A stretch of 20,000 nucleotides of DNA from an uncultured virus (IMG/VR IMGVR_UViG_3300046170_000325) (Duplodnaviria > Heunggongvirae > Uroviricota > Caudoviricetes). This document shows positions 8,993-19,867 of the stretch, in pieces. The DNA is taken from the IMG/VR virus record IMGVR_UViG_3300046170_000325; one strand, given 5' to 3'. Every line of letters starts with the position of its first letter. Positions within the stretch are counted from its first letter, which is position 1. The position numbers were made by a program, and so were the translations under genes. The notes under the pieces are model-generated. The model was given only the letters and a program-made list of their open reading frames with translations. It searched no databases and was not told the origin of the DNA.

Positions 8993-9751
8993 TTATTCTC
9001 CTTTTTTAGATTTTAAAGATTCTTTAAATGCAGACATGAACGCTGTCCAATCAAGATCCAAGGGAGCATTCCCTAAATCAACTCGACTCTTGGCATCAAA
9101 TGCTGCGGTGTATTTATGAAACAACTTACGCTTGCCGTATGACACAGCCCTAGTTGTTTCCTTGAAACCCTGTCCACTAGTACGAGTTGATACCTCGTAG
9201 TTTGCAAACAGGTTGAAGTCTACCCACTCACGTATCATTGCTGATACTTTCTTATGAGTAGCCATCTCCCAACGATCATAGGGCTCACGCTCTGGATCAT
9301 TAAAAGTTCTTATGCCTACATGAGATAGTAAGATGATGTGCATCTTCTTCTTTTGTAGGGCATCAAACATTCTTAGTAGTCTGCCGAATAACTCAGCAGA
9401 TTCTGTAAAACCTTTTCCATATCCCATGGACTCAATAGATTTCTGACCATGAATCTGACATACCTTTTGCTGTACTAATTTCTCAGCCCAGTCAGTTGTA
9501 TCAAAGACCACTGTCTTGTAGTCATGATCTTCTTCATACAAAGTTTTGATTTGTATTAGTATGTCGTCATAACTTTCACACAAAGGAAAGGATGCTGTAT
9601 CTATATAGTTAGTACCAGCTTCTGTCTTAATAAAGATAGGATTAGGTGCTTGACTAGCAAAGGTAGTCTTACCTATGCCATCGGTACCAGATAGGTTTAT
9701 CTTTATAGAAGGGATCTGTATTCCCGTAGTCACGCTATTCAATAGACTCAT
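8993..9751 (-). CDS. Sak4-like AAA_24 ATPase (single-strand annealing recombinase)
   Basis: Walker A GTDGIGKTT, YKTVVFDT, GYGKG, IILLSH, EWVD and AKSR. Start ATG 9751 with GGAGG at 9761-9765. Confidence 0.88.
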   Translation of the reverse strand: MSLLNSVTTGIQIPSIKINLSGTDGIGKTTFASQAPNPIFIKTEAGTNYIDTASFPLCESYDDILIQIKTLYEEDHDYKTVVFDTTDWAEKLVQQKVCQIHGQKSIESMGYGKGFTESAELFGRLLRMFDALQKKKMHIILLSHVGIRTFNDPEREPYDRWEMATHKKVSAMIREWVDFNLFANYEVSTRTSGQGFKETTRAVSYGKRKLFHKYTAAFDAKSRVDLGNAPLDLDWTAFMSAFKESLKSKKGE

Positions 9752-9935
9752 ACTTGTCGACCTCCAAATCATTCATAGAAATTAAACCTTGAGAAGTCAT
9801 TTCATCTGCAACTGTTTCTACATCATCTATGATAGTTAATATTTTATTAACCCAAGCAGAATGTAAACCAGGTGCTACCTCTCTTTTAATCGTATCTTTA
9901 ATTTGCATTATGACTGCACTGTAATGTATGTTCAT
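9735..9935 (-). CDS. Hypothetical protein
   Basis: 66-aa ORF with ATGA coupling and a GAGGGGG RBS. Confidence 0.6.
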   Translation of the reverse strand: MNIHYSAVIMQIKDTIKREVAPGLHSAWVNKILTIIDDVETVADEMTSQGLISMNDLEVDKYESIE

Positions 9936-10132
9936 TTTGACACCCCCTCTATATGTCTTTTGTTATCTTGAAAATCAAAGTTTGTATGAAAAAGATATTT
10001 ATCTGTAGAATTATTTTCCCAAACAGATACAAAATCTTCTGCACAATTAGGTGAGTGCTCAACATAAATAGTTAAGCTACCCGTTTCAATGTAAGTAGAA
10101 TACTTACTTCGTTTATCTATTTTAATAGCCAT
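9932..10132 (-). CDS. Hypothetical protein
   Basis: 66-aa ORF with TAATG coupling and an AGGAG RBS. Confidence 0.6.
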   Translation of the reverse strand: MAIKIDKRSKYSTYIETGSLTIYVEHSPNCAEDFVSVWENNSTDKYLFHTNFDFQDNKRHIEGVSK

Positions 10133-10605: not shown

Positions 10606-10633
10606 ATGATACGCCTATGAAAAATATTGTCAA
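10606..10633 (-). promoter_or_regulatory. Sigma70-type leftward promoter
   Basis: TTGACA (10633-10628), 16-nt spacer, TATCAT (10611-10606), just upstream of the leftward operon. Confidence 0.65.
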
Positions 10634-10650: not shown

Positions 10651-10682
10651 TCTTTACTTATTGTAAAGAGCAATGTTAAGAT
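10651..10682 (+). promoter_or_regulatory. Rightward extended -10 promoter overlapped by an operator-like palindrome
   Basis: TTTACT (10653-10658), 18-nt spacer, TAAGAT (10677-10682) preceded by TGn. Inverted repeat TCTTTAC-n5-GTAAAGA at 10651-10669. Confidence 0.55.
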
Positions 10683-10688
10683 GATATT

Positions 10689-10779
10689 TGGTATGAGTTA
10701 ATGAAGTTATATATCAAATATAAAACTCCTTACTCAACCCCCTATAAGAGCATTAACTTATACCATTCTATATAAGGAG
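10689..10779 (+). ncRNA. Putative structured 5' leader RNA of the Cro-like/primase operon
   Basis: 15-bp stem 10689-10703/10751-10765 with one G-U pair. The enclosed CTCCTTA (10726-10732) is complementary to the RBS TAAGGAG (10773-10779). Confidence 0.5.
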
Positions 10780-10783
10780 AACT

Positions 10784-10981
10784 ATGGAACTTAAAGACTA
10801 CATTGTTAAAAGAGGTGAAGATAAGTTAGCCAAAGACTTAGGTGTATCTATTGATACTGTTAGATCTTGGCGATACGGAACCAGGCAACCCTCAGTCAAT
10901 CAAGCTAAGAAACTTATTAAGATGACAGGCTATGCTTTAGGTTGGGAAAACATTTATGGATCAGTAGACGAATGCCAATAG
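10784..10981 (+). CDS. Cro-like helix-turn-helix regulator
   Basis: LAKDLGVSIDTVRSWRYGTRQPS HTH pattern. AAGGAG RBS. First gene of the divergent operon. Confidence 0.85.
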   Translation: MELKDYIVKRGEDKLAKDLGVSIDTVRSWRYGTRQPSVNQAKKLIKMTGYALGWENIYGSVDECQ

Positions 10982-12972
10982 AAATAAAACCAAACACAGT
11001 CGGACAAGACATAGCCAATGATGAGCGTAAAGATATGCTTATGTCATATCATGAAAATAATTTTCATCTAATACCATGCGGATCTACAAACGACATCATA
11101 CCTGAATACTTTAAAAGCAGACATCCTTTTGAAGACGATATGGTTTTACAAAAGCGTTGGTCAAAAACACCAAGAGTAAAATGGGCTGACTATATAGAGA
11201 AGCAACCTACTCTTAATGAAGTCAAGCAATGGTATCTACAATTTAAAGATTGCAACTGGGCCGCTATCACAGGCGTAACATTTGTAGTGCTAGATGCAGA
11301 CACCCAAGAAGCATGTGATTTTTGTGAGTCAGGTCAGATAACAAGAACAATGTTAAAACAAAAGACACCTCGCGGTGGCTATCATTACTTCTATGCAATC
11401 AATGATGATCTAAAGATAAGAAACACTACAGGTAAATTAGATATAAGAGGAGAGGGTGGCTATGTCATGGTCAGTCCTTCTGTTAATTACCAGTTCGAGG
11501 TAGTTGAAGGAGCTGTCGTAGATTCACTTGATGATTTACCTACTCTTAATAGTCAAGACATGAATATTATCTATGACTATAACAACACAGGTAAGATCAA
11601 CACAGAAAGTAAAACACCACTAACAACAGATGGTGTGCAAACAGGAATGCGAAACGACACCCTTGCTAGGCTAGTAGGTAAATGGATACTAGAGGGTTGG
11701 GGCATGAGAGAAGTTGTAATCAAAGCATTGGATTGGAATCAAACAAACAACCCACCTATGAGTGTGCAAGAAGTATTAAATACAACTCAAAGCATTTGTG
11801 CTGGACACTTGAAAAGAAATCCTGAAGACGAGACAGGCATACAGAAATGGAATACAAGTCAGTGGCAGATACAATTAACAGATGATCTCAAGGAGATTAT
11901 GGATCAAGAAGATCCTATAGTAAAAGCAAAGGATGATATACAAAGCGATCCTCTTGGACTCAAATCATTTAACGATCCCTTTTGGGATTCAATGGACAGC
12001 AGTAGGATTGAGCAGTATTGGGGAGATGCTTTTGTCTTTGAACAATCCAGAGTCTTACTGCTAGGTAAACCAAAGATAGGTAAGTCGCATTGGCTAGGAG
12101 CATTCGCGGCAGCAGCTACTACAGGCACAGACTTTATGGGTATGAGTTTCTCAAGACCTATCAAAGTAATGTGGCTACAAGCAGAGATCATTCATGAGTT
12201 CTTAAAGAAAAGAATTGAGATGTATTATCAACCCTATCATCATGATCCTGAACTATACAACTTAGGTAAGTCAAACCTTATAGCATCTGGTAGATTAAGA
12301 AAGAACATCATGAGGGACAGCGACATAGATGCTATCGCAGAGAGTATAGAGTTTCATAAACCAGACTTGGTAATGATAGATCCTATTATTAATTTCTTTA
12401 GTGGAGAAGAGAACTCCAACTCAGAAATACATGAGATGCTATCGAGGATAGATAAACTTATTGAACTATATAAAGTAGCAGTGATCATTGCTCACCATAC
12501 TGGTAAAGAAAGGGCAGATGATTTGTCGTTCATGTCAGCTAGGGGTGGTAGTGCTTTCGCTGGGTGGATGGATTCAGGTGTCAAGCTGTCAGGTAAGAAA
12601 CCAAACATAACATTATTCTATGAAGCTCGTAATGCAAGAGAACCTGATCAGCATCTAGCATACTTTGATTTTGAAAAAGGATACTTCAAGGTAGTAGATG
12701 CACAAGACAGTCCTGATGAGGTAGAGATTGCAAGAGTAGTAGCATCAGGTATGAGCAAACAAAAGTTTTATACAAGACAAGAACTAGAACTATTAGCAAG
12801 AGAAACTCTTAAAGAAAATGAGATGGCATCAGGAGAGAGGGCCGCTCGTTATGCAGTGAGTTATGTGCAGAAGTATCTAGGCGAAAGAGTAAAGAATCAT
12901 AACGTACCTGGTAAGAATACTTGGTATTATTTAGCAGACAATGAAATGAAACGACCTTGGAAAGATGATTAA
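10972..12972 (+). CDS. Bifunctional Prim-Pol primase with PriCT and AAA_25 (RepA-like) helicase domains
   Basis: VVLDAD, TPRGGYHYFY and DIRGEGGYV..PS (Prim-Pol); GMRNDTL (PriCT-1); GKPKIGKS, LVMIDP, HHTGK and RGGSA (helicase). Start probably ATG 10972. Confidence 0.9.
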   Translation: MPIEIKPNTVGQDIANDERKDMLMSYHENNFHLIPCGSTNDIIPEYFKSRHPFEDDMVLQKRWSKTPRVKWADYIEKQPTLNEVKQWYLQFKDCNWAAITGVTFVVLDADTQEACDFCESGQITRTMLKQKTPRGGYHYFYAINDDLKIRNTTGKLDIRGEGGYVMVSPSVNYQFEVVEGAVVDSLDDLPTLNSQDMNIIYDYNNTGKINTESKTPLTTDGVQTGMRNDTLARLVGKWILEGWGMREVVIKALDWNQTNNPPMSVQEVLNTTQSICAGHLKRNPEDETGIQKWNTSQWQIQLTDDLKEIMDQEDPIVKAKDDIQSDPLGLKSFNDPFWDSMDSSRIEQYWGDAFVFEQSRVLLLGKPKIGKSHWLGAFAAAATTGTDFMGMSFSRPIKVMWLQAEIIHEFLKKRIEMYYQPYHHDPELYNLGKSNLIASGRLRKNIMRDSDIDAIAESIEFHKPDLVMIDPIINFFSGEENSNSEIHEMLSRIDKLIELYKVAVIIAHHTGKERADDLSFMSARGGSAFAGWMDSGVKLSGKKPNITLFYEARNAREPDQHLAYFDFEKGYFKVVDAQDSPDEVEIARVVASGMSKQKFYTRQELELLARETLKENEMASGERAARYAVSYVQKYLGERVKNHNVPGKNTWYYLADNEMKRPWKDD

Positions 12973-14167: not shown

Positions 14168-15462
14168 ATGTATTAAGTTTATTTGACGGCATGAGCTGTG
14201 GTCGTATTGCTTTGGATCAATTAGAAATCAAGGTAGACAACTACTATGCCTGTGAAATAGATAAGTATGCAATGCAAGTAAGCCAAGCAAACTATCCTGA
14301 GATCATACAGCTTGGAGATGTTTGTGATGTTAAGTCAGAGGATCTTCCAAAGATAGATCTTATTCTTGCTGGTAGTCCATGCCAAGGATTTAGTTTCGCG
14401 GGTAAGCAACTCGCCTTTGATGATCCAAGGTCAGCATTGTTCTTCGAGTTCATTAGACTATTAAAAGAATGTAAGCCAAAGTATTTCTTACTAGAGAATG
14501 TAAGAATGAAGAAAGAATACCTACAAGTAATCAGCGAACAGGTGTCAGGATGTTATCCAGAGATACCCTTTGGTATCGAGCCGACTATGATATGTAGCAG
14601 TCTTGTTTCTGCCCAGTCAAGGAAGAGATATTACTGGACGAACATACCCAATGTCACCCAACCTAAGCAAAAAGGCATAGTTTTGAGGGACATATTGGAG
14701 ACGAGAGTTAATCAAGATAGATTATCGGACATGACTAACCAAGATAATAAAGCCTACTGCCTAACAACAACCTATCCTTGTGCTAGACCTCAAAGAAGTA
14801 TGGATAAATCTGAGAAGAGTATGATTCCTGTTGAAGATACTGTTCCTGATTCAACGACACTTATATATGACAGTAAAGATAAATCACACAAACCTAAATT
14901 GGTAGGTAGAGATAATACGCCTGGACATGACATATTAAAAAGAATTTACAGTGAAGATGGTAAGTCACCAACAATAACAGCCCATGCAGGAAAAGGAACA
15001 GTACCAAAAATAGAAACCAAGCCCATACAAGTAGGCATAGCAACAGACATCAACGGACATGACATACTTAAGAGAGTCTATAGCGAAGATGGTAAGTCGC
15101 CTACTGTTAATACCTGTCAAGGTGGCAACAGAGAACCCAAGGTATTGGCGGGAGCTTATCGAGCAAGATCAATAGACAAGGACGGCAACAGAGTATCCTG
15201 GAAAGAAGTAAAGCCTAAGCAGATGTTGGAGCTGAGAAGAGATGAGAAGTCAAACACAGTGACATCAGTACAAAAAGATAATGTCCTAACCCAAGACGAA
15301 GTCTACTGGCGTAAGCTAACACCTCTGGAATGCGAGAGGTTGCAGACAGTACCCGACAACTATACAAATCATGTCAGTAATTCTCAGCGTTTTAAAATGT
15401 TAGGCAATGGTTGGACGATTGAAGTAATCAAACATATATTTAAAAACATGGAGAGACAATGA
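14164..15462 (+). CDS. C5-cytosine DNA methyltransferase with a long modular variable region
   Basis: Motif I LSLFDG, IV GSPCQ, VI LENV, VIII Q.R.R, IX RKLTPLECERLQ and X LGNGW. Confidence 0.93.
   Translation: MNVLSLFDGMSCGRIALDQLEIKVDNYYACEIDKYAMQVSQANYPEIIQLGDVCDVKSEDLPKIDLILAGSPCQGFSFAGKQLAFDDPRSALFFEFIRLLKECKPKYFLLENVRMKKEYLQVISEQVSGCYPEIPFGIEPTMICSSLVSAQSRKRYYWTNIPNVTQPKQKGIVLRDILETRVNQDRLSDMTNQDNKAYCLTTTYPCARPQRSMDKSEKSMIPVEDTVPDSTTLIYDSKDKSHKPKLVGRDNTPGHDILKRIYSEDGKSPTITAHAGKGTVPKIETKPIQVGIATDINGHDILKRVYSEDGKSPTVNTCQGGNREPKVLAGAYRARSIDKDGNRVSWKEVKPKQMLELRRDEKSNTVTSVQKDNVLTQDEVYWRKLTPLECERLQTVPDNYTNHVSNSQRFKMLGNGWTIEVIKHIFKNMERQ
14923..15108 (+). repeat. Intragenic tandem repeat (132-nt period) in the C5 MTase variable region
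   Basis: GHDILKRIYSEDGKSPTI starts at 14923 and GHDILKRVYSEDGKSPTV starts at 15055. Confidence 0.9.
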
Positions 15463-15886: not shown

Positions 15887-16378
15887 ATGGAAGAGAAAAA
15901 AAAATTAACAAAAAAACAGGAAACATTTGTCGACCTTATGGTGTATCAAGATTATAAGCAGACGAAGTGTGCTCATCTTGCGGGCTATGAAAATCCAGGG
16001 GTTGCAGCAACTAGGTTGTTGAGTGATCAGCAGTATGCTCATGTGCAAGAGAAGATCATGGAACTCAAAGCTGTGCAAAGAACTAAGAATGAAATTACTT
16101 TTGAAGGCATAGCAACTAAGTTAGGTGAGATAAGAGATGTTGCATTAGCCGATGGAAGTTATGGGCCTGCGGTTACAGCAGAGATTGCAAGAGCTAAACT
16201 TGCTGGGCTTATGGTAGATAGGAAAGAGTTGAAGATTCATAAGATAGACAACATGAGTAGGGATCAGCTAGAGAATAGATTGAAGGAGTTGGTGTTAGAG
16301 AATCAGATTATCTTGGGTACTTCGGAAACTGTAGAAGATGATAAGGATCTTATTGAAGATCAGACTGATCAAGAATAG
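15887..16378 (+). CDS. Terminase small subunit-like protein
   Basis: N-terminal TerS HTH pattern LTKKQETFV...A..AGY....A.RLL....VQ..I.EL, followed by AV.A....AKLAGL. Confidence 0.72.
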   Translation: MEEKKKLTKKQETFVDLMVYQDYKQTKCAHLAGYENPGVAATRLLSDQQYAHVQEKIMELKAVQRTKNEITFEGIATKLGEIRDVALADGSYGPAVTAEIARAKLAGLMVDRKELKIHKIDNMSRDQLENRLKELVLENQIILGTSETVEDDKDLIEDQTDQE

Positions 16379-16538
16379 CTTTGACTCTATCTTCTGCGTC
16401 CTTTAACTTGCGTTCGCAATACTTTACGACCTTAGTTCCTTCTTCAAAAGATTGGATTGATTCTTCGAGGGATATGTTTTCTTTTTCTAAGGAGCTGACT
16501 AAGTCTTTCAACTTAGCCATACCTTTTTCGAATGTCAT
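16350..16538 (-). CDS. xseB: Exodeoxyribonuclease VII small subunit
   Basis: TFE..M..L...V..LE...ISLEESI..FEEG......C...L..AE.RV is the XseB signature. Start ATG 16538 overlaps the upstream stop (TAATG). Confidence 0.88.
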   Translation of the reverse strand: MTFEKGMAKLKDLVSSLEKENISLEESIQSFEEGTKVVKYCERKLKDAEDRVKAILDQSDLQ

Positions 16539-16765
16539 TAACTTACCCTTTGCACACAATATCTTTTAGATGTTGCGTCCTTCCAGAATTGGAACTTGCG
16601 ATCCTTGAAGTGTGCTGTGTAGAAGTTTGATCTGTATTTGTAGACCTCATCTCTACTTAAACCTGTAATCGTATCTCCGATTAAAAGTTTATCGAGTGCT
16701 TGTGTAAATGGTGTTCTAAAGTTTGCTTTCTTTAGTGGCACATCTTTTTCTATTTTAAATCCCAT
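16538..16765 (-). CDS. Small basic hypothetical phage protein (FKIEKDVPL...L.IGD type)
   Basis: Start at ATG 16765 with AAGGAG upstream. N-terminal pattern common in small phage proteins. Confidence 0.65.
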   Translation of the reverse strand: MGFKIEKDVPLKKANFRTPFTQALDKLLIGDTITGLSRDEVYKYRSNFYTAHFKDRKFQFWKDATSKRYCVQRVS

Positions 16766-17048
16766 TGTTCTCTCTCCTTTTTTGGTTAAATAATTTTCTT
16801 TGCCTTTCGTGTTCATCTCCTTTCATCATGTCAATAAGATCCTCCTCACTATGTGGGCTAGGAATATGTTGCTTATGATTAGAGTTAGACCATTCAATTA
16901 CTTGGCTATCATCATTGTATGTAATGGTAAACTTCCAAGGTTTTTCAGGATCTTTCTTTTCGTCAAGGATCATCTTGATTTCTTTACGCCACTTCTCTAG
17001 TTTGATAAGTGTGCGTTGTCGTTCTACTTTTAGATCATGTTCTGTCAT
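16755..17048 (-). CDS. Hypothetical protein
   Basis: 97-aa ORF with GGAGG RBS, overlapping its neighbours. Confidence 0.65.
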   Translation of the reverse strand: MTEHDLKVERQRTLIKLEKWRKEIKMILDEKKDPEKPWKFTITYNDDSQVIEWSNSNHKQHIPSPHSEEDLIDMMKGDEHERQRKLFNQKRRENNGI

Positions 17049-17235
17049 TAGATACCTCCTCTATTTCTAAAACTTCTTCTTCATCATAACCAAGATTAAG
17101 TCCTGTTCCTGTGCTTAACTCATTTTCTGGCTCATAGTTTCCCATATCAACCATTTCTCTAGCTTCATCTTCTGATTTTGCTTCAACTTCTATTTCAGAA
17201 TAGCCTATCCATTTTGTAAATACTTTATACCTCAT
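17035..17235 (-). CDS. Small acidic hypothetical protein (IEVEA.S.DEA motif)
   Basis: 66-aa ORF with AAGGAG RBS, in the leftward cluster. Confidence 0.65.
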   Translation of the reverse strand: MRYKVFTKWIGYSEIEVEAKSEDEAREMVDMGNYEPENELSTGTGLNLGYDEEEVLEIEEVSNDRT

Positions 17236-17862
17236 CTTTTATCTCCTTGTTGATACTTTGTTCTATGTATGTTCCCCATTGATCAGCCATGGCCTTAGCA
17301 ATGCCTGTGTAGAACATACTCCTTTCTTTACCCTTGCCACTACCAATCCACCAAATCCTATGCTTTTCTTTAGGGTGTAGTTTGTCAGTAGCTTCCTTAA
17401 CATTATCTGTTTCAGTCAGCTTGGGTAAATCTTTTAGCCATAAGCAAGTGCGTTTGTATTCTTTGTGTCCAAACTGATAAGGGTTAATCGTTTGATCTGA
17501 TTTCCTTATGTAAGATGAGATAACACTTACTGGATTCTCAATGGCTATATGTTTGATTGGAGCTTCCATAAGTTTTTTGACAAACTCAATAGCGTCATCT
17601 CTTAAATGCATTGGTTTCTTACCCTCAGTAAACCACCTTGCCCCACTAACAGATAGATGAGTGCATGGTGGGTGTCCTATCATCAAGTCCCAACCTTGAT
17701 CCAAGATGTCAAAGACATCTCCTCATAGTGTCTATCTTGTATATCGCTTTCGCATGGTAGTATGTCGCAAGACCAAGCGTCAAAACCTAGTTCAAGGAAT
17801 GCGTCCCTTACTGTTCCACTATACTCACAAGCAACCAATACTTTTATCTTGCTTCTATCCAT
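17225..17862 (-). pseudogene. Short phage cytosine methyltransferase-like gene, interrupted by a 1-nt frameshift near 17722
   Basis: From ATG 17862: MDRSKIKVLVACEYSGTVRDAF...WSCDILP...RHYE. It continues in the -1 frame as GDVFDILDQGWDLMIGHPPCT...IENP...GIAKAMADQW. Unshifted, it stops at TGA 17685-17683. Confidence 0.85.
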
Positions 17863-18052
17863 TGTCTTGCTCCTTTAGTGCGTTTGAATGTTGTTGCCAA
17901 TAGCTTATAAATTGTTCTAGCTTTTCAATGTGCTTTTCTATGTTCTTACTGTCTTCATAGTGAAGCCTGTAATCAATCATCTCTTTTATGTGTTCAAAAG
18001 ACTTCTCTATTTCTTTTAAATCATCTTGTAAAAAACCTACTAATCTACTCAT
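17855..18052 (-). CDS. Hypothetical protein
   Basis: 65-aa helical ORF with GGAGG RBS. Confidence 0.6.
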   Translation of the reverse strand: MSRLVGFLQDDLKEIEKSFEHIKEMIDYRLHYEDSKNIEKHIEKLEQFISYWQQHSNALKEQDNG

Positions 18053-18371
18053 TGTCTACCTCCTCTATTTCTATGACATGAGCAAAGTCATCACACTCAA
18101 AACAGTATGCGTCCTTTCCTGCATGGTTAGTAATTGGTTGACCATTCACATCTTCCATAGTCCATGATTGCGTCCTACATTCTTCGCATACGCTTATCAT
18201 GTTTGGTTTCTTTAGTTCTATACTTATGAAATCATCTAGGTAATAACCCAGTTCATTCATAAAGGTAAGATTAATTTGCGAGTGTAGATCAAGTAAGTCT
18301 TTGGCTTGAATATCGAACTCCAAGCCACCCCTTATTTTTAATATATATGTTTGTTTGTTAAATTTACTCAT
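18045..18371 (-). CDS. Hypothetical protein with C-terminal CxxC...CxxC (possible Zn ribbon)
   Basis: CEEC...CFEC. Start ATG 18371 with AGGAG upstream. Confidence 0.6.
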   Translation of the reverse strand: MSKFNKQTYILKIRGGLEFDIQAKDLLDLHSQINLTFMNELGYYLDDFISIELKKPNMISVCEECRTQSWTMEDVNGQPITNHAGKDAYCFECDDFAHVIEIEEVDNE

Positions 18372-18588
18372 TTGCACACTCCTCTATCATGGTTTGTGTT
18401 GATAAATTTTCTAATAACCAATGTTGCTTTCCTCTATCTGCTGTTTCAAATTTCATGGTATTGAAATCTAAATATACCCAACAGTCCATGTCATCATTCC
18501 ATATAATTTCAACGAAATCTTTTTGGAAATACCAACGTCCATTGCTTATTAAATCTTGGCATTTATTAATTAATTTTTCTCTATTCAT
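18364..18588 (-). CDS. Hypothetical protein
   Basis: 74-aa ORF with AAGGAG RBS and TAATG coupling. Confidence 0.6.
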   Translation of the reverse strand: MNREKLINKCQDLISNGRWYFQKDFVEIIWNDDMDCWVYLDFNTMKFETADRGKQHWLLENLSTQTMIEECANE

Positions 18589-18992
18589 TAGTCTTGCTCC
18601 TTATAACCAAACACTTGATCATTTTTACTTCTGATTTCTTCAACCATTTCGTTGAAGTCATACTCCTGTTGCTCATACCCATCATGGTATTCTCTATCAA
18701 CTATCTCCCAATCTTTGACAACATAAACTCCATTGTCATAGTTATCAGTATCAAGTTGTTTGTATGTTCCAACTCCAAGAGATAGCGTTCCTCCTAGTGT
18801 GTTGCCTGTTAATTGTGATAGCCTTGCGATTGCGTAGCTTGGATCAGCTTGACATCTAATGCCATATAATTTGGCGACATGTAGCAAAGGTTCTACTGAA
18901 TCTCGCCCTCCATTCCAATGAAGATATAGCGACTGCCAATCCTCCTTTGGTGTGTTGTTTTCTTTGATTGTTATTACTGCTCTATTTCCCAT
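18588..18992 (-). CDS. Conserved-looking phage early protein (MGNRA...YLHWNGG)
   Basis: 134-aa ORF with AGGAG RBS. The MG.R...Y.HW.G pattern is typical of a widespread uncharacterised phage family. Confidence 0.7.
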   Translation of the reverse strand: MGNRAVITIKENNTPKEDWQSLYLHWNGGRDSVEPLLHVAKLYGIRCQADPSYAIARLSQLTGNTLGGTLSLGVGTYKQLDTDNYDNGVYVVKDWEIVDREYHDGYEQQEYDFNEMVEEIRSKNDQVFGYKEQD

Positions 18993-18993
18993 T

Positions 18994-19302
18994 CTATGCT
19001 CCTATGTTTATCCAATATCCTGCACTATAAACATGCAATCTATATGGTGTTATTTTTTCTTCGACTTCTAAGTGGCTACCACAAAAATAACCAACTGCTT
19101 CGTCCATTAGGTCAAAATCTTTCTTCATGATGATTGCTTCTTGTTCATCTTTCCAATGCCATGGCTCAGATTTTCTTCCTAAATTGTTTAGCTTGTAGAG
19201 TTTCTGTGCAAGTTTGTTAAACCTTTTAAACCCTACTTCTAATTCATCTCTTGTATATTTCTTCTTTGCCTTTGGCATTTCGTTTACTAAAGTTAGTCCC
19301 AT
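18994..19302 (-). CDS. Hypothetical protein
   Basis: 102-aa ORF with GGAGG RBS, ending SAGYWINIGA. Confidence 0.65.
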   Translation of the reverse strand: MGLTLVNEMPKAKKKYTRDELEVGFKRFNKLAQKLYKLNNLGRKSEPWHWKDEQEAIIMKKDFDLMDEAVGYFCGSHLEVEEKITPYRLHVYSAGYWINIGA

Positions 19303-19304
19303 TG

Positions 19305-19487
19305 CTACACCTCCTCAGCGTCTATAGTTTCATGGTCGCTTATATGCTCCCATTTAATATCATCACAATTATCAATGGCTAAATCTTCTGCTTGTTCCCA
19401 ATCAGTAGCCATGATAATTTTTTCTTCTACTATTGTTGTGATTCTCCTTACAACAAATTCTTTTAAGTCTTTTTTAGTTATATCCAT
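19305..19487 (-). CDS. Small acidic hypothetical protein
   Basis: 60-aa ORF with TAATG coupling. Confidence 0.55.
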   Translation of the reverse strand: MDITKKDLKEFVVRRITTIVEEKIIMATDWEQAEDLAIDNCDDIKWEHISDHETIDAEEV

Positions 19488-19867
19488 TACGCCCTCACTG
19501 AATATTCATCTTCACTTAAACCAACTTCAATAGAACCACCATTGGCAATTCTTTTTAGTTGGTCATCTTGTAGATGTAAGTTGAAAGCAAAGTCATCTCT
19601 ACTTACTAGATATGAATCTTCCCAAACATCTTTGTTATATTTAGGATTGAATCCACTAGCATAGACAACTGTGTTATTAGTTTTTGGTGTCTTATCTTTT
19701 GGTGTTTGATAAGCGTTCATTAAATAAATGCCATCATCTTTTACAAGATAGAAAGATTTATCTGTTGTGTATTTATCTCTATAAGCTACTTTGAAATTAC
19801 TAGCTTTGATAGTTTCCTTAGCCAACTTGACTAAAGACTTGTTAGAATTAAATTTTAATCGTGTCAT
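19487..19867 (-). CDS. DUF3085-like protein
   Basis: LVKDDGIYLM...VVYA.G.NP....D.W.......DDF matches the DUF3085 pattern as I recall it. AAGGAG RBS. Confidence 0.7.
   Translation of the reverse strand: MTRLKFNSNKSLVKLAKETIKASNFKVAYRDKYTTDKSFYLVKDDGIYLMNAYQTPKDKTPKTNNTVVYASGFNPKYNKDVWEDSYLVSRDDFAFNLHLQDDQLKRIANGGSIEVGLSEDEYSVRA

Follow-up and report, generated by a model that had tools for sequence, protein, structure and literature searches.

A conserved, folded leader RNA with a C-rich loop heads the cro-primase operon of marine phages

The window analysed here, a 20,000-nt stretch of DNA from an uncultured member of the Caudoviricetes, is part of a marine phage and raises the question of what a long stem at the head of a replication transcript does. 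Two promoters stand back to back in this locus. One serves a leftward Sak4/SSB/helicase/Cas4 operon and the other a rightward operon that encodes an HTH protein, a primase-polymerase-helicase and two methyltransferases (Table 1). The first-pass annotation had placed a 15-bp stem at the start of the rightward transcript and proposed that its loop forms a pseudoknot over the ribosome-binding site (RBS) of the Cro-like gene, thereby gating the operon.

Table 1. Features of the leader locus and candidate target regions in the window.
Feature	Coordinates	Strand	Remarks
AGGGGGU RBS of the 66-aa gene 9738-9935	9942..9948	-	Best RBS match of the window loop, 7 bp; predicted candidate target
Leftward promoter TTGACA-16-TATCAT of the Sak4/SSB/helicase/Cas4 operon	10606..10633	-	Predicted; leader short and unstructured
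Rightward promoter, sigma70-type	10653..10682	+	-35 TTTACT 10653-58; extended -10 TG-n-TAAGAT 10674-82
P1 5' arm TGGTATGAGTTAATG	10689..10703	+	Pairs with 10751-10765
P2, weak AU-rich inner hairpin	10705..10727	+	ViennaRNA; relatives vary in sequence and length
CUCCUUA, proposed anti-SD	10726..10732	+	In 1/16 contigs with identical Cro and 16/70 leaders; not a conserved element of the clade
Unpaired C-rich element ACCCCCUA	10737..10744	+	Unpaired probability 0.88-1.0; aligned by MAFFT with CCUCCUU of distant lineages
P1 3' arm CATTAACTTATACCA	10751..10765	+	Two-sided change in 10/11 consensus pairs; 96.3% of cells pair
Linker between P1 and SD, A/U-rich	10766..10772	+	321/395 letters A or T in linkers of 35 representatives
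Shine-Dalgarno (SD) of the cro-like gene, TAAGGAGA	10773..10780	+	GGAGA in 35/35 representatives
Cro-like HTH gene, 65 aa	10784..10981	+	Pfam HTH_3, E 6.6e-5; PHROG 35
Primase-polymerase / PriCT-1 / AAA_25 helicase, then two DNA methyltransferases	10972..12972	+	Pfam
Small-gene cluster	16353..19867	-	RBSs are candidate trans targets; "early module" inferred from position and size

A relative, G003, spans 56.6 kb (98% complete), and its capsid shares 70.6% identity with the capsid of pelagiphage HTVC023P. Among 69 of the 94 called ORFs of G003, none belonged to an integrase or repressor family. A search of bacterial genome contigs gave no prophage match, and alignment of Cro against bacterial genomes and a DNA search of INPHARED also returned none. 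Every match of the primase in INPHARED lies below 60% identity with partial cover, and the ESM Atlas matches of the first leftward gene are hypothetical viral clusters. The G003 counterpart of a small minus-strand gene of the window (16353-16538) matches a PHROG exonuclease family, and we presume a resemblance of this gene to the exonuclease VII small subunit; the xseB-like gene has matches of 30-49% in taxa unrelated to one another. Two overlapping minus-strand ORFs at 17228-17862 (59 aa and 159 aa, the longer without a Pfam match) have, from their translations only, the look of a single DNA-methyltransferase-like gene that a frameshift has broken up. The C5 methyltransferase gene contains a pair of 50-nt direct repeats with 82% similarity at 14923-15104. 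The late genes of G003 include a group of large genes assigned to unknown PHROG families (L434:10665-15018), and GroES-like and ferredoxin-labelled genes occur elsewhere in the late region.

The stem, here termed P1, withstood inspection. Its coordinates and pairing are correct, it comprises 15 bp with one G·U, and it is the sole 15-bp stem with at most one G·U and arms within 110 nt on either strand of the 20-kb window. The plus-strand fold reaches -23.4 kcal/mol (z -3.52), which none of 200 shuffles equals, versus z -1.30 on the minus strand, where 24 of 200 shuffles do. A minor inner hairpin that had also been described (TTATAT/ATATAA, 10707-12/10718-23) is present in the window, where its ViennaRNA version takes up the first 2 nt of CTCCTTA. 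Among 35 representatives, however, P1 alone is recovered as a consensus helix, and the inner hairpin is variable. A tRNA-like 3' CCA after P1 was considered by eye and is not conserved.

The spacing of P1 relative to the promoter likewise agrees with the original description, which had the stem begin 7 nt after the -10 box, at about the transcription start. A generic promoter scan did not list the rightward promoter, and its placement, together with a start site at or beside G10690, was inferred from the sequence. Five scans for relatives were made, and some contigs recur among the resulting loci. Before the fifth scan, the promoter arrangement was found in 253 of the 259 loci with a called cro start; these 253 loci yielded 70 distinct leaders and one short form. 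P1 starts 6-9 nt downstream of the -10 hexamer in 70/70 leaders. Metatranscriptome contigs were obtained from 4 of 23 listed runs, at a depth (3-5) unable to show RNA ends; one contig spans the promoter. The promoter/terminator scan of the window detected no intrinsic terminator for the leader. Nearly all relatives carry a TTG(T/C)A box behind the -35 hexamer (TTGTA in the window, 10659-10666), possibly a regulator site, and a similar promoter of this type occurs in the early region of relative G008. In one relative (L258), an extra small hairpin is inserted between promoter and P1, so that P1 is not at +1 there.

Comparison across relatives identifies P1 as an RNA structure. The 36 distinct arm pairs, related to one another and scored strand-symmetrically, contain 417 Watson-Crick pairs, 39 G·U, no A·C and 9 other combinations. 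Since G·U pairs occur and A·C pairs do not, P1 forms on the plus strand, as had been surmised from the single G·U of the window. A sequence-only MAFFT alignment was made with 35 representatives, retained from 78 at 93% similarity. In this alignment, 10 of 11 consensus P1 pairs show compensatory change and 96.3% of cells are paired, compared with 38-54% in slid controls of the whole structure; leaders of homologous operons thus covary in the stem helix. The leader is a single-copy element of 55-95 nt with a branched interior, in which invariance is limited to a single P1 pair and another C located upstream of the SD. A leader RNA that is real, folded and conserved is very likely.

The same comparison weighs on a different kind of explanation, namely that the site is a DNA element (cruciform, operator or single-strand origin) or serves a small antisense ORF as its RBS. 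The site adjoins the primase gene, and G·T pairing would also favour a hairpin of plus-strand single-stranded DNA. However, the absence of A·C next to 39 G·U excludes a strand-symmetric element, the position of the structure tracks the start site, and neither the outgroup nor one nested lineage, whose primase is intact, has the structure. As for the antisense ORF, the window does hold one of 13 codons with a TTG start on the minus strand, but such ORFs occur in 13/35 leaders, run from 1 to 59 codons and have unrelated sequences. The suggestion that CTCCTTA is merely the RBS of this ORF is disfavoured, as the ORF is not conserved. Explanations of this kind are very improbable.

The leader has also been lost in one lineage. 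The helix is absent from 13 loci, in which the neighbouring genes are retained with similar identity. In an outgroup-rooted primase tree of 38 rows, which omits 4 of the 35 leader types (primase missing or short), the helix-less loci are nested among leader-bearing phages with support 95/86, and their state is hence one of loss. When 9 records were searched with a covariance model, each of the 7 that bear the leader had a single strong copy, the outgroup genome had none, and the leader-lost record gave no more than a weak tail match. In the leader-lost lineage, the weak model matches stop at the start codon and were read as RBS tail only. A pattern scan for the motif in other contexts gave at least 120 stretches, and the model matched 2 of the 80 checked, both of them known family contigs. 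In eight outgroup contigs, the promoter is retained and the cro AUG lies at position 8, which makes the message leaderless. In these outgroup contigs (L442-L449, e.g. L442:2501), the HTH-gene AUG lies 8 nt after the -10 box and no SD is present. One promoter type is followed by three 5'-end designs: leaderless, short SD leader and structured leader.

The proposed function of the loop fared less well than the stem. The letters are as described, with CTCCTTA (10726-10732) complementary to TAAGGAG (10773-10779), and the bare loop-RBS duplex of the window has 7 bp and -7.5 kcal/mol. Among shuffles of the 47-nt interior, 0.44% contain the exact 7-mer and 1.9% some 7-nt complement across the RBS, so the match is unusual in the window sequence, although it is absent from the majority of relatives. 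Among the 16 closest contigs, which have an identical Cro, 15 break the 7-mer by carrying CTCCTCA. The anti-SD is thus not conserved, and its exact form is confined to 16 of the 70 distinct leaders. In the alignment, the CUCCUUA/UAAGGAG register has 44.9% of cells paired versus 96.3% for the stem, and own loops show no excess of pairing with own RBSs over swapped pairs (p 0.42, 0.41 and 0.72). The specific switch put forward in the annotation is, judged by these sequence comparisons, unlikely.

A broader form of cis control would have the C-rich loop pair with the leader's own AGGAG and gate cro-primase translation, perhaps together with a protein or ligand. Loop and SD lie close together on the same molecule, CUCCU (5-6 bp with AGGAG) is present in 39/70 leaders, and the aligned C-rich register against the own SD has 74.5% of cells paired. 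The central U-A of that register nevertheless occurs in only 13/35 representatives, and covariation with the own RBS is absent. Across 16 leaders, linker lengths do not compensate to a significant degree (rho -0.25, p 0.34), and the nested alternative fold is 8 kcal/mol worse. Control by a ligand is further disfavoured by the scarcity of invariant positions, since ligand aptamers have more of them than this phage leader. Looser pairing of CUCCU with AGGAG over 5-6 bp is possible in other (CCUCC) lineages, because the folding tools used cannot score pseudoknots. Cis control in this general sense is also rated as unlikely.

What relatives do conserve is a short C-rich motif. CC(C/U)CC occurs in 29/35 interiors, against 2.2 expected from shuffles. 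CCUCC is found in 16/35 and UCUCC, the perfect partner of the leader's own GGAGA SD, in 1/35. In the window's clade, the element is CCCCC (10738-42), which mismatches the own GGAG. According to the tree, the ancestral interior combined a CCCC-looped inner hairpin with unpaired UCCUCCUU behind it, and leaders of the window's clade have for the most part kept CCCCC alone. Single C-rich seeds are often lost, as in L152 compared with its sister L151. By base complementarity, the loop motif is a better fit to GGAGG or GGGGG than to its own site.

This motif bears on two further explanations. In the simpler one, P1 alone matters as a plain 5' stabiliser or insulator that protects the message and keeps the leader off the SD, and the C-rich tract is incidental. 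P1 is indeed the only consensus helix and starts at +1, single seeds are frequently lost, the leader leaves predicted SD accessibility unchanged (median 0.64 with it and 0.66 without), and 5' structures stabilise mRNA (PMC3997798). A simple hairpin would suffice for this purpose, however, and CC(C/U)CC persists in 29/35 interiors despite turnover of the P1 sequence. The stabiliser by itself is accordingly a rather improbable account.

The second explanation is a protein operator or decoy. The CC(C/U)CC loop would be bound by the primase-helicase, SSB or the Cro-like protein in autogenous control (cf. T4 gp32/gp43), or would mimic the 16S rRNA tail for a host protein. The position at the head of a replication operon resembles that of the T4 operators (PMC3014915), and CCCCC and CCUCC appear interchangeable. 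For the mimic, the mean longest match to a 16S tail motif is 5.8 nt versus 4.4 in shuffles. These points are offset by the widely varying spacing and context of the motif and by the leader-lost lineage, which keeps the same neighbour genes at similar identity. A protein site would also leave a lineage-level match between loops and early RBSs unexplained. It is unlikely to be the answer.

That match emerged from a comparison of loops with the RBSs of small minus-strand genes beyond terS, which were classed as early by position and size. Eighteen leader types were paired with early-RBS sets, some of them linked via terS identity (0.95 or more) rather than by lying on a single contig. The first, energy-based own-versus-other test was not significant (p 0.40 and 0.15). 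Substring tests, a post hoc statistic on related lineages, gave p 0.005-0.22 for early RBSs, with 7 of 10 variants below 0.05; the corresponding counts were 1/9 for replication-gene RBSs and 0/3 for the own RBS. The early-RBS signal was gone after three lineages were dropped (p 0.11).

The lineages concerned differ in their preferred RBS. GGGG-type early RBSs amount to 10/27 in G002, 8/22 in G003, 8/23 in G012 and 11/19 in G013, which form a clade with a CCCCC loop. In the L293 type, also with a CCCCC loop, they amount to 7/17, and GGAGG is absent. This clade and the L293 type are separate in the primase tree, and both lack CCUCC. The L290 type has CCUCC only and carries GGAGG in 6/19 early RBSs, with matches of 9-11 nt that reach into the spacer. 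Among the top 10 accessible targets, RBSs account for 7 in G002, 6 in the L290 type and 5 in the L293 type. In the window's own subclade, which has a CCCCC loop, GGGG early RBSs number 1/29, 0/12 and 1/17, and one RBS is among the top 10 targets. The L171 type reaches 5/25 GGGG early RBSs though it has no CCCC loop. No RBS is among the top 10 targets of the L171 and L479 types, and the single match of the L137 type is not an RBS. The leader-lost lineage has GGGG sites in 1/12 and 0/10, and the leaderless outgroup shows repeated GGAGG early RBSs (5/14).

The early small genes share repeated, lineage-specific RBS cassettes (GAGGAGGT, AAGGGGGAG and GGAGGAAGC), with sites at 16758-19302 in the window, 28879-34677 in G002 and 18569-19824 in G008. 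By analogy with PeSLs, such cassettes are a likely substrate for gene shuffling.

The best-supported reading of these data is that the C-rich seed may pair in trans with G-rich RBSs of early genes, a lead to be held tentatively. Further points speak against trans pairing. Any anti-SD-like motif matches RBSs by construction, and loop and early RBSs are direct DNA repeats, in which short-patch homogenisation could mimic a match. The leader also showed no terminator, and the metatranscriptome contigs, at their depth of 3-5, contained no free small RNA. The proposed course of events begins with the first ~76 nt of the cro-primase transcript, where covariation shows a 10-15 bp helix that brings the two ends of the leader together. 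From known decay pathways, a base-paired 5' end would be expected to resist RppH/RNase E-type decay, and the P1 helix would also stop 3' exonucleases. Protection of the 5' end combined with the exonuclease block would prolong the life of the message and allow a stable leader fragment to accumulate. The leader would then presumably be released or exposed. Its helix encloses one or two unpaired C-rich seeds, conserved as CCUCC(UU) in the ancestral form and as CCCCC(U) in derived lineages. Most likely, these seeds would pair with GGAGG/GGGGG RBSs of other transcripts, chiefly those of the phage's early genes, and so reduce the translation of these transcripts after the replication promoter has fired. 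The GGAGA site of the leader itself would pair imperfectly and probably stay mostly open. Because one lineage lost the leader, it would act as a tuning device.

A more far-reaching version holds that the leader reads an "SD code", silencing early and perhaps host mRNAs with GGAGG/GGGGG and sparing those with GGAGA, while loop and target RBSs switch together. This version is doubtful. If true, it would be an RNA counterpart of T4 RegB and an early-to-middle switch in an abundant marine phage group. Should the seed act in trans, the phage would time its genes by a leader-borne anti-SD RNA and lineage-specific RBS variants; should the leader be a stabiliser only, it would amount to a modest new Rfam-grade motif. 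In these widespread marine phages, the structured RNA covaries strongly, naturally occurring deletion variants exist, and the outgroup is leaderless.

The annotation's remark that the element belongs to no recognised family was borne out by Infernal searches. Rfam 15 gave no match in the window at the gathering threshold; six chance matches (best E 0.31) lie far below it, and six relatives had no match at E ≤ 1. No paper on the motif was found in the literature, and it may be one of the unnamed candidates in the IMG/VR intergenic alignments of Fremin et al. 2023 (PMC10690425). The leader RNA is apparently uncatalogued and, by the comparisons made here, a member of none of the known systems considered.

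The conserved unpaired C-rich motif is shared with C-rich trans-acting sRNAs of the RsaE/cuckoo type. In Staphylococcus aureus, C-rich loops of RsaE block RBSs (PMC2790875). RsaE and RNAIII, with a UCCC motif, and the cuckoo RNAs, with CCUCCUCCC loops (PMC4615179), resemble the leader in their unpaired C-rich anti-SD-like motifs, one or two per RNA, and their covarying helices. RsaE/RNAIII and the alphaproteobacterial cuckoo RNAs are, however, stand-alone chromosomal sRNAs, whereas the present element is a phage mRNA leader with one long-range helix and no terminator. Cuckoo RNAs are moreover defined by 2-4 serial hairpins, each with a CCUCCUCCC-type loop, and no multiloop (PMC4615179), in contrast to the single enclosing helix found here.

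Phage P4 CI RNA and P1/P7 C4 RNA (PMC4825925, PMC12197685) are likewise structured operon-leader RNAs that pair with complementary sites. Replication genes are under the control of P4 CI, and an RBS is what C4 blocks. P4 CI is processed from an internal position, has a target to either side of it (seqA and seqC) and functions in lysogenic immunity, whereas the helix of the leader lies at +1. The flanking complementary sites of P4 CI and P1 C4 are without counterpart, as an upstream site is precluded by P1 beginning at +1 and no conserved downstream site was found beyond the SD core.

The 5'-terminal stabilising stem-loops of ompA and papA (PMC3997798) and the T4-type PeSL cassettes (PMC2839356) present promoter, stem and SD in series and a base-paired 5' end, as the leader does. 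Its helix lies within a few nt of +1, judged from promoter spacing. PeSLs are multicopy short terminator hairpins that often overlap the promoter (PMC2839356); the leader is single-copy, with one strong model match per leader-bearing record in all 7, and has a conserved loop motif.

The T4 gp32 and gp43 operators are structured leaders of replication genes, as in this locus. The former is a true pseudoknot, the latter a short hairpin, and neither is described as showing an anti-SD loop in the available part of PMC3014915. The same source describes T4 RegB, which attacks GGAG SDs of early mRNAs. RegB is itself a protein nuclease, but its outcome is the one proposed for the leader.
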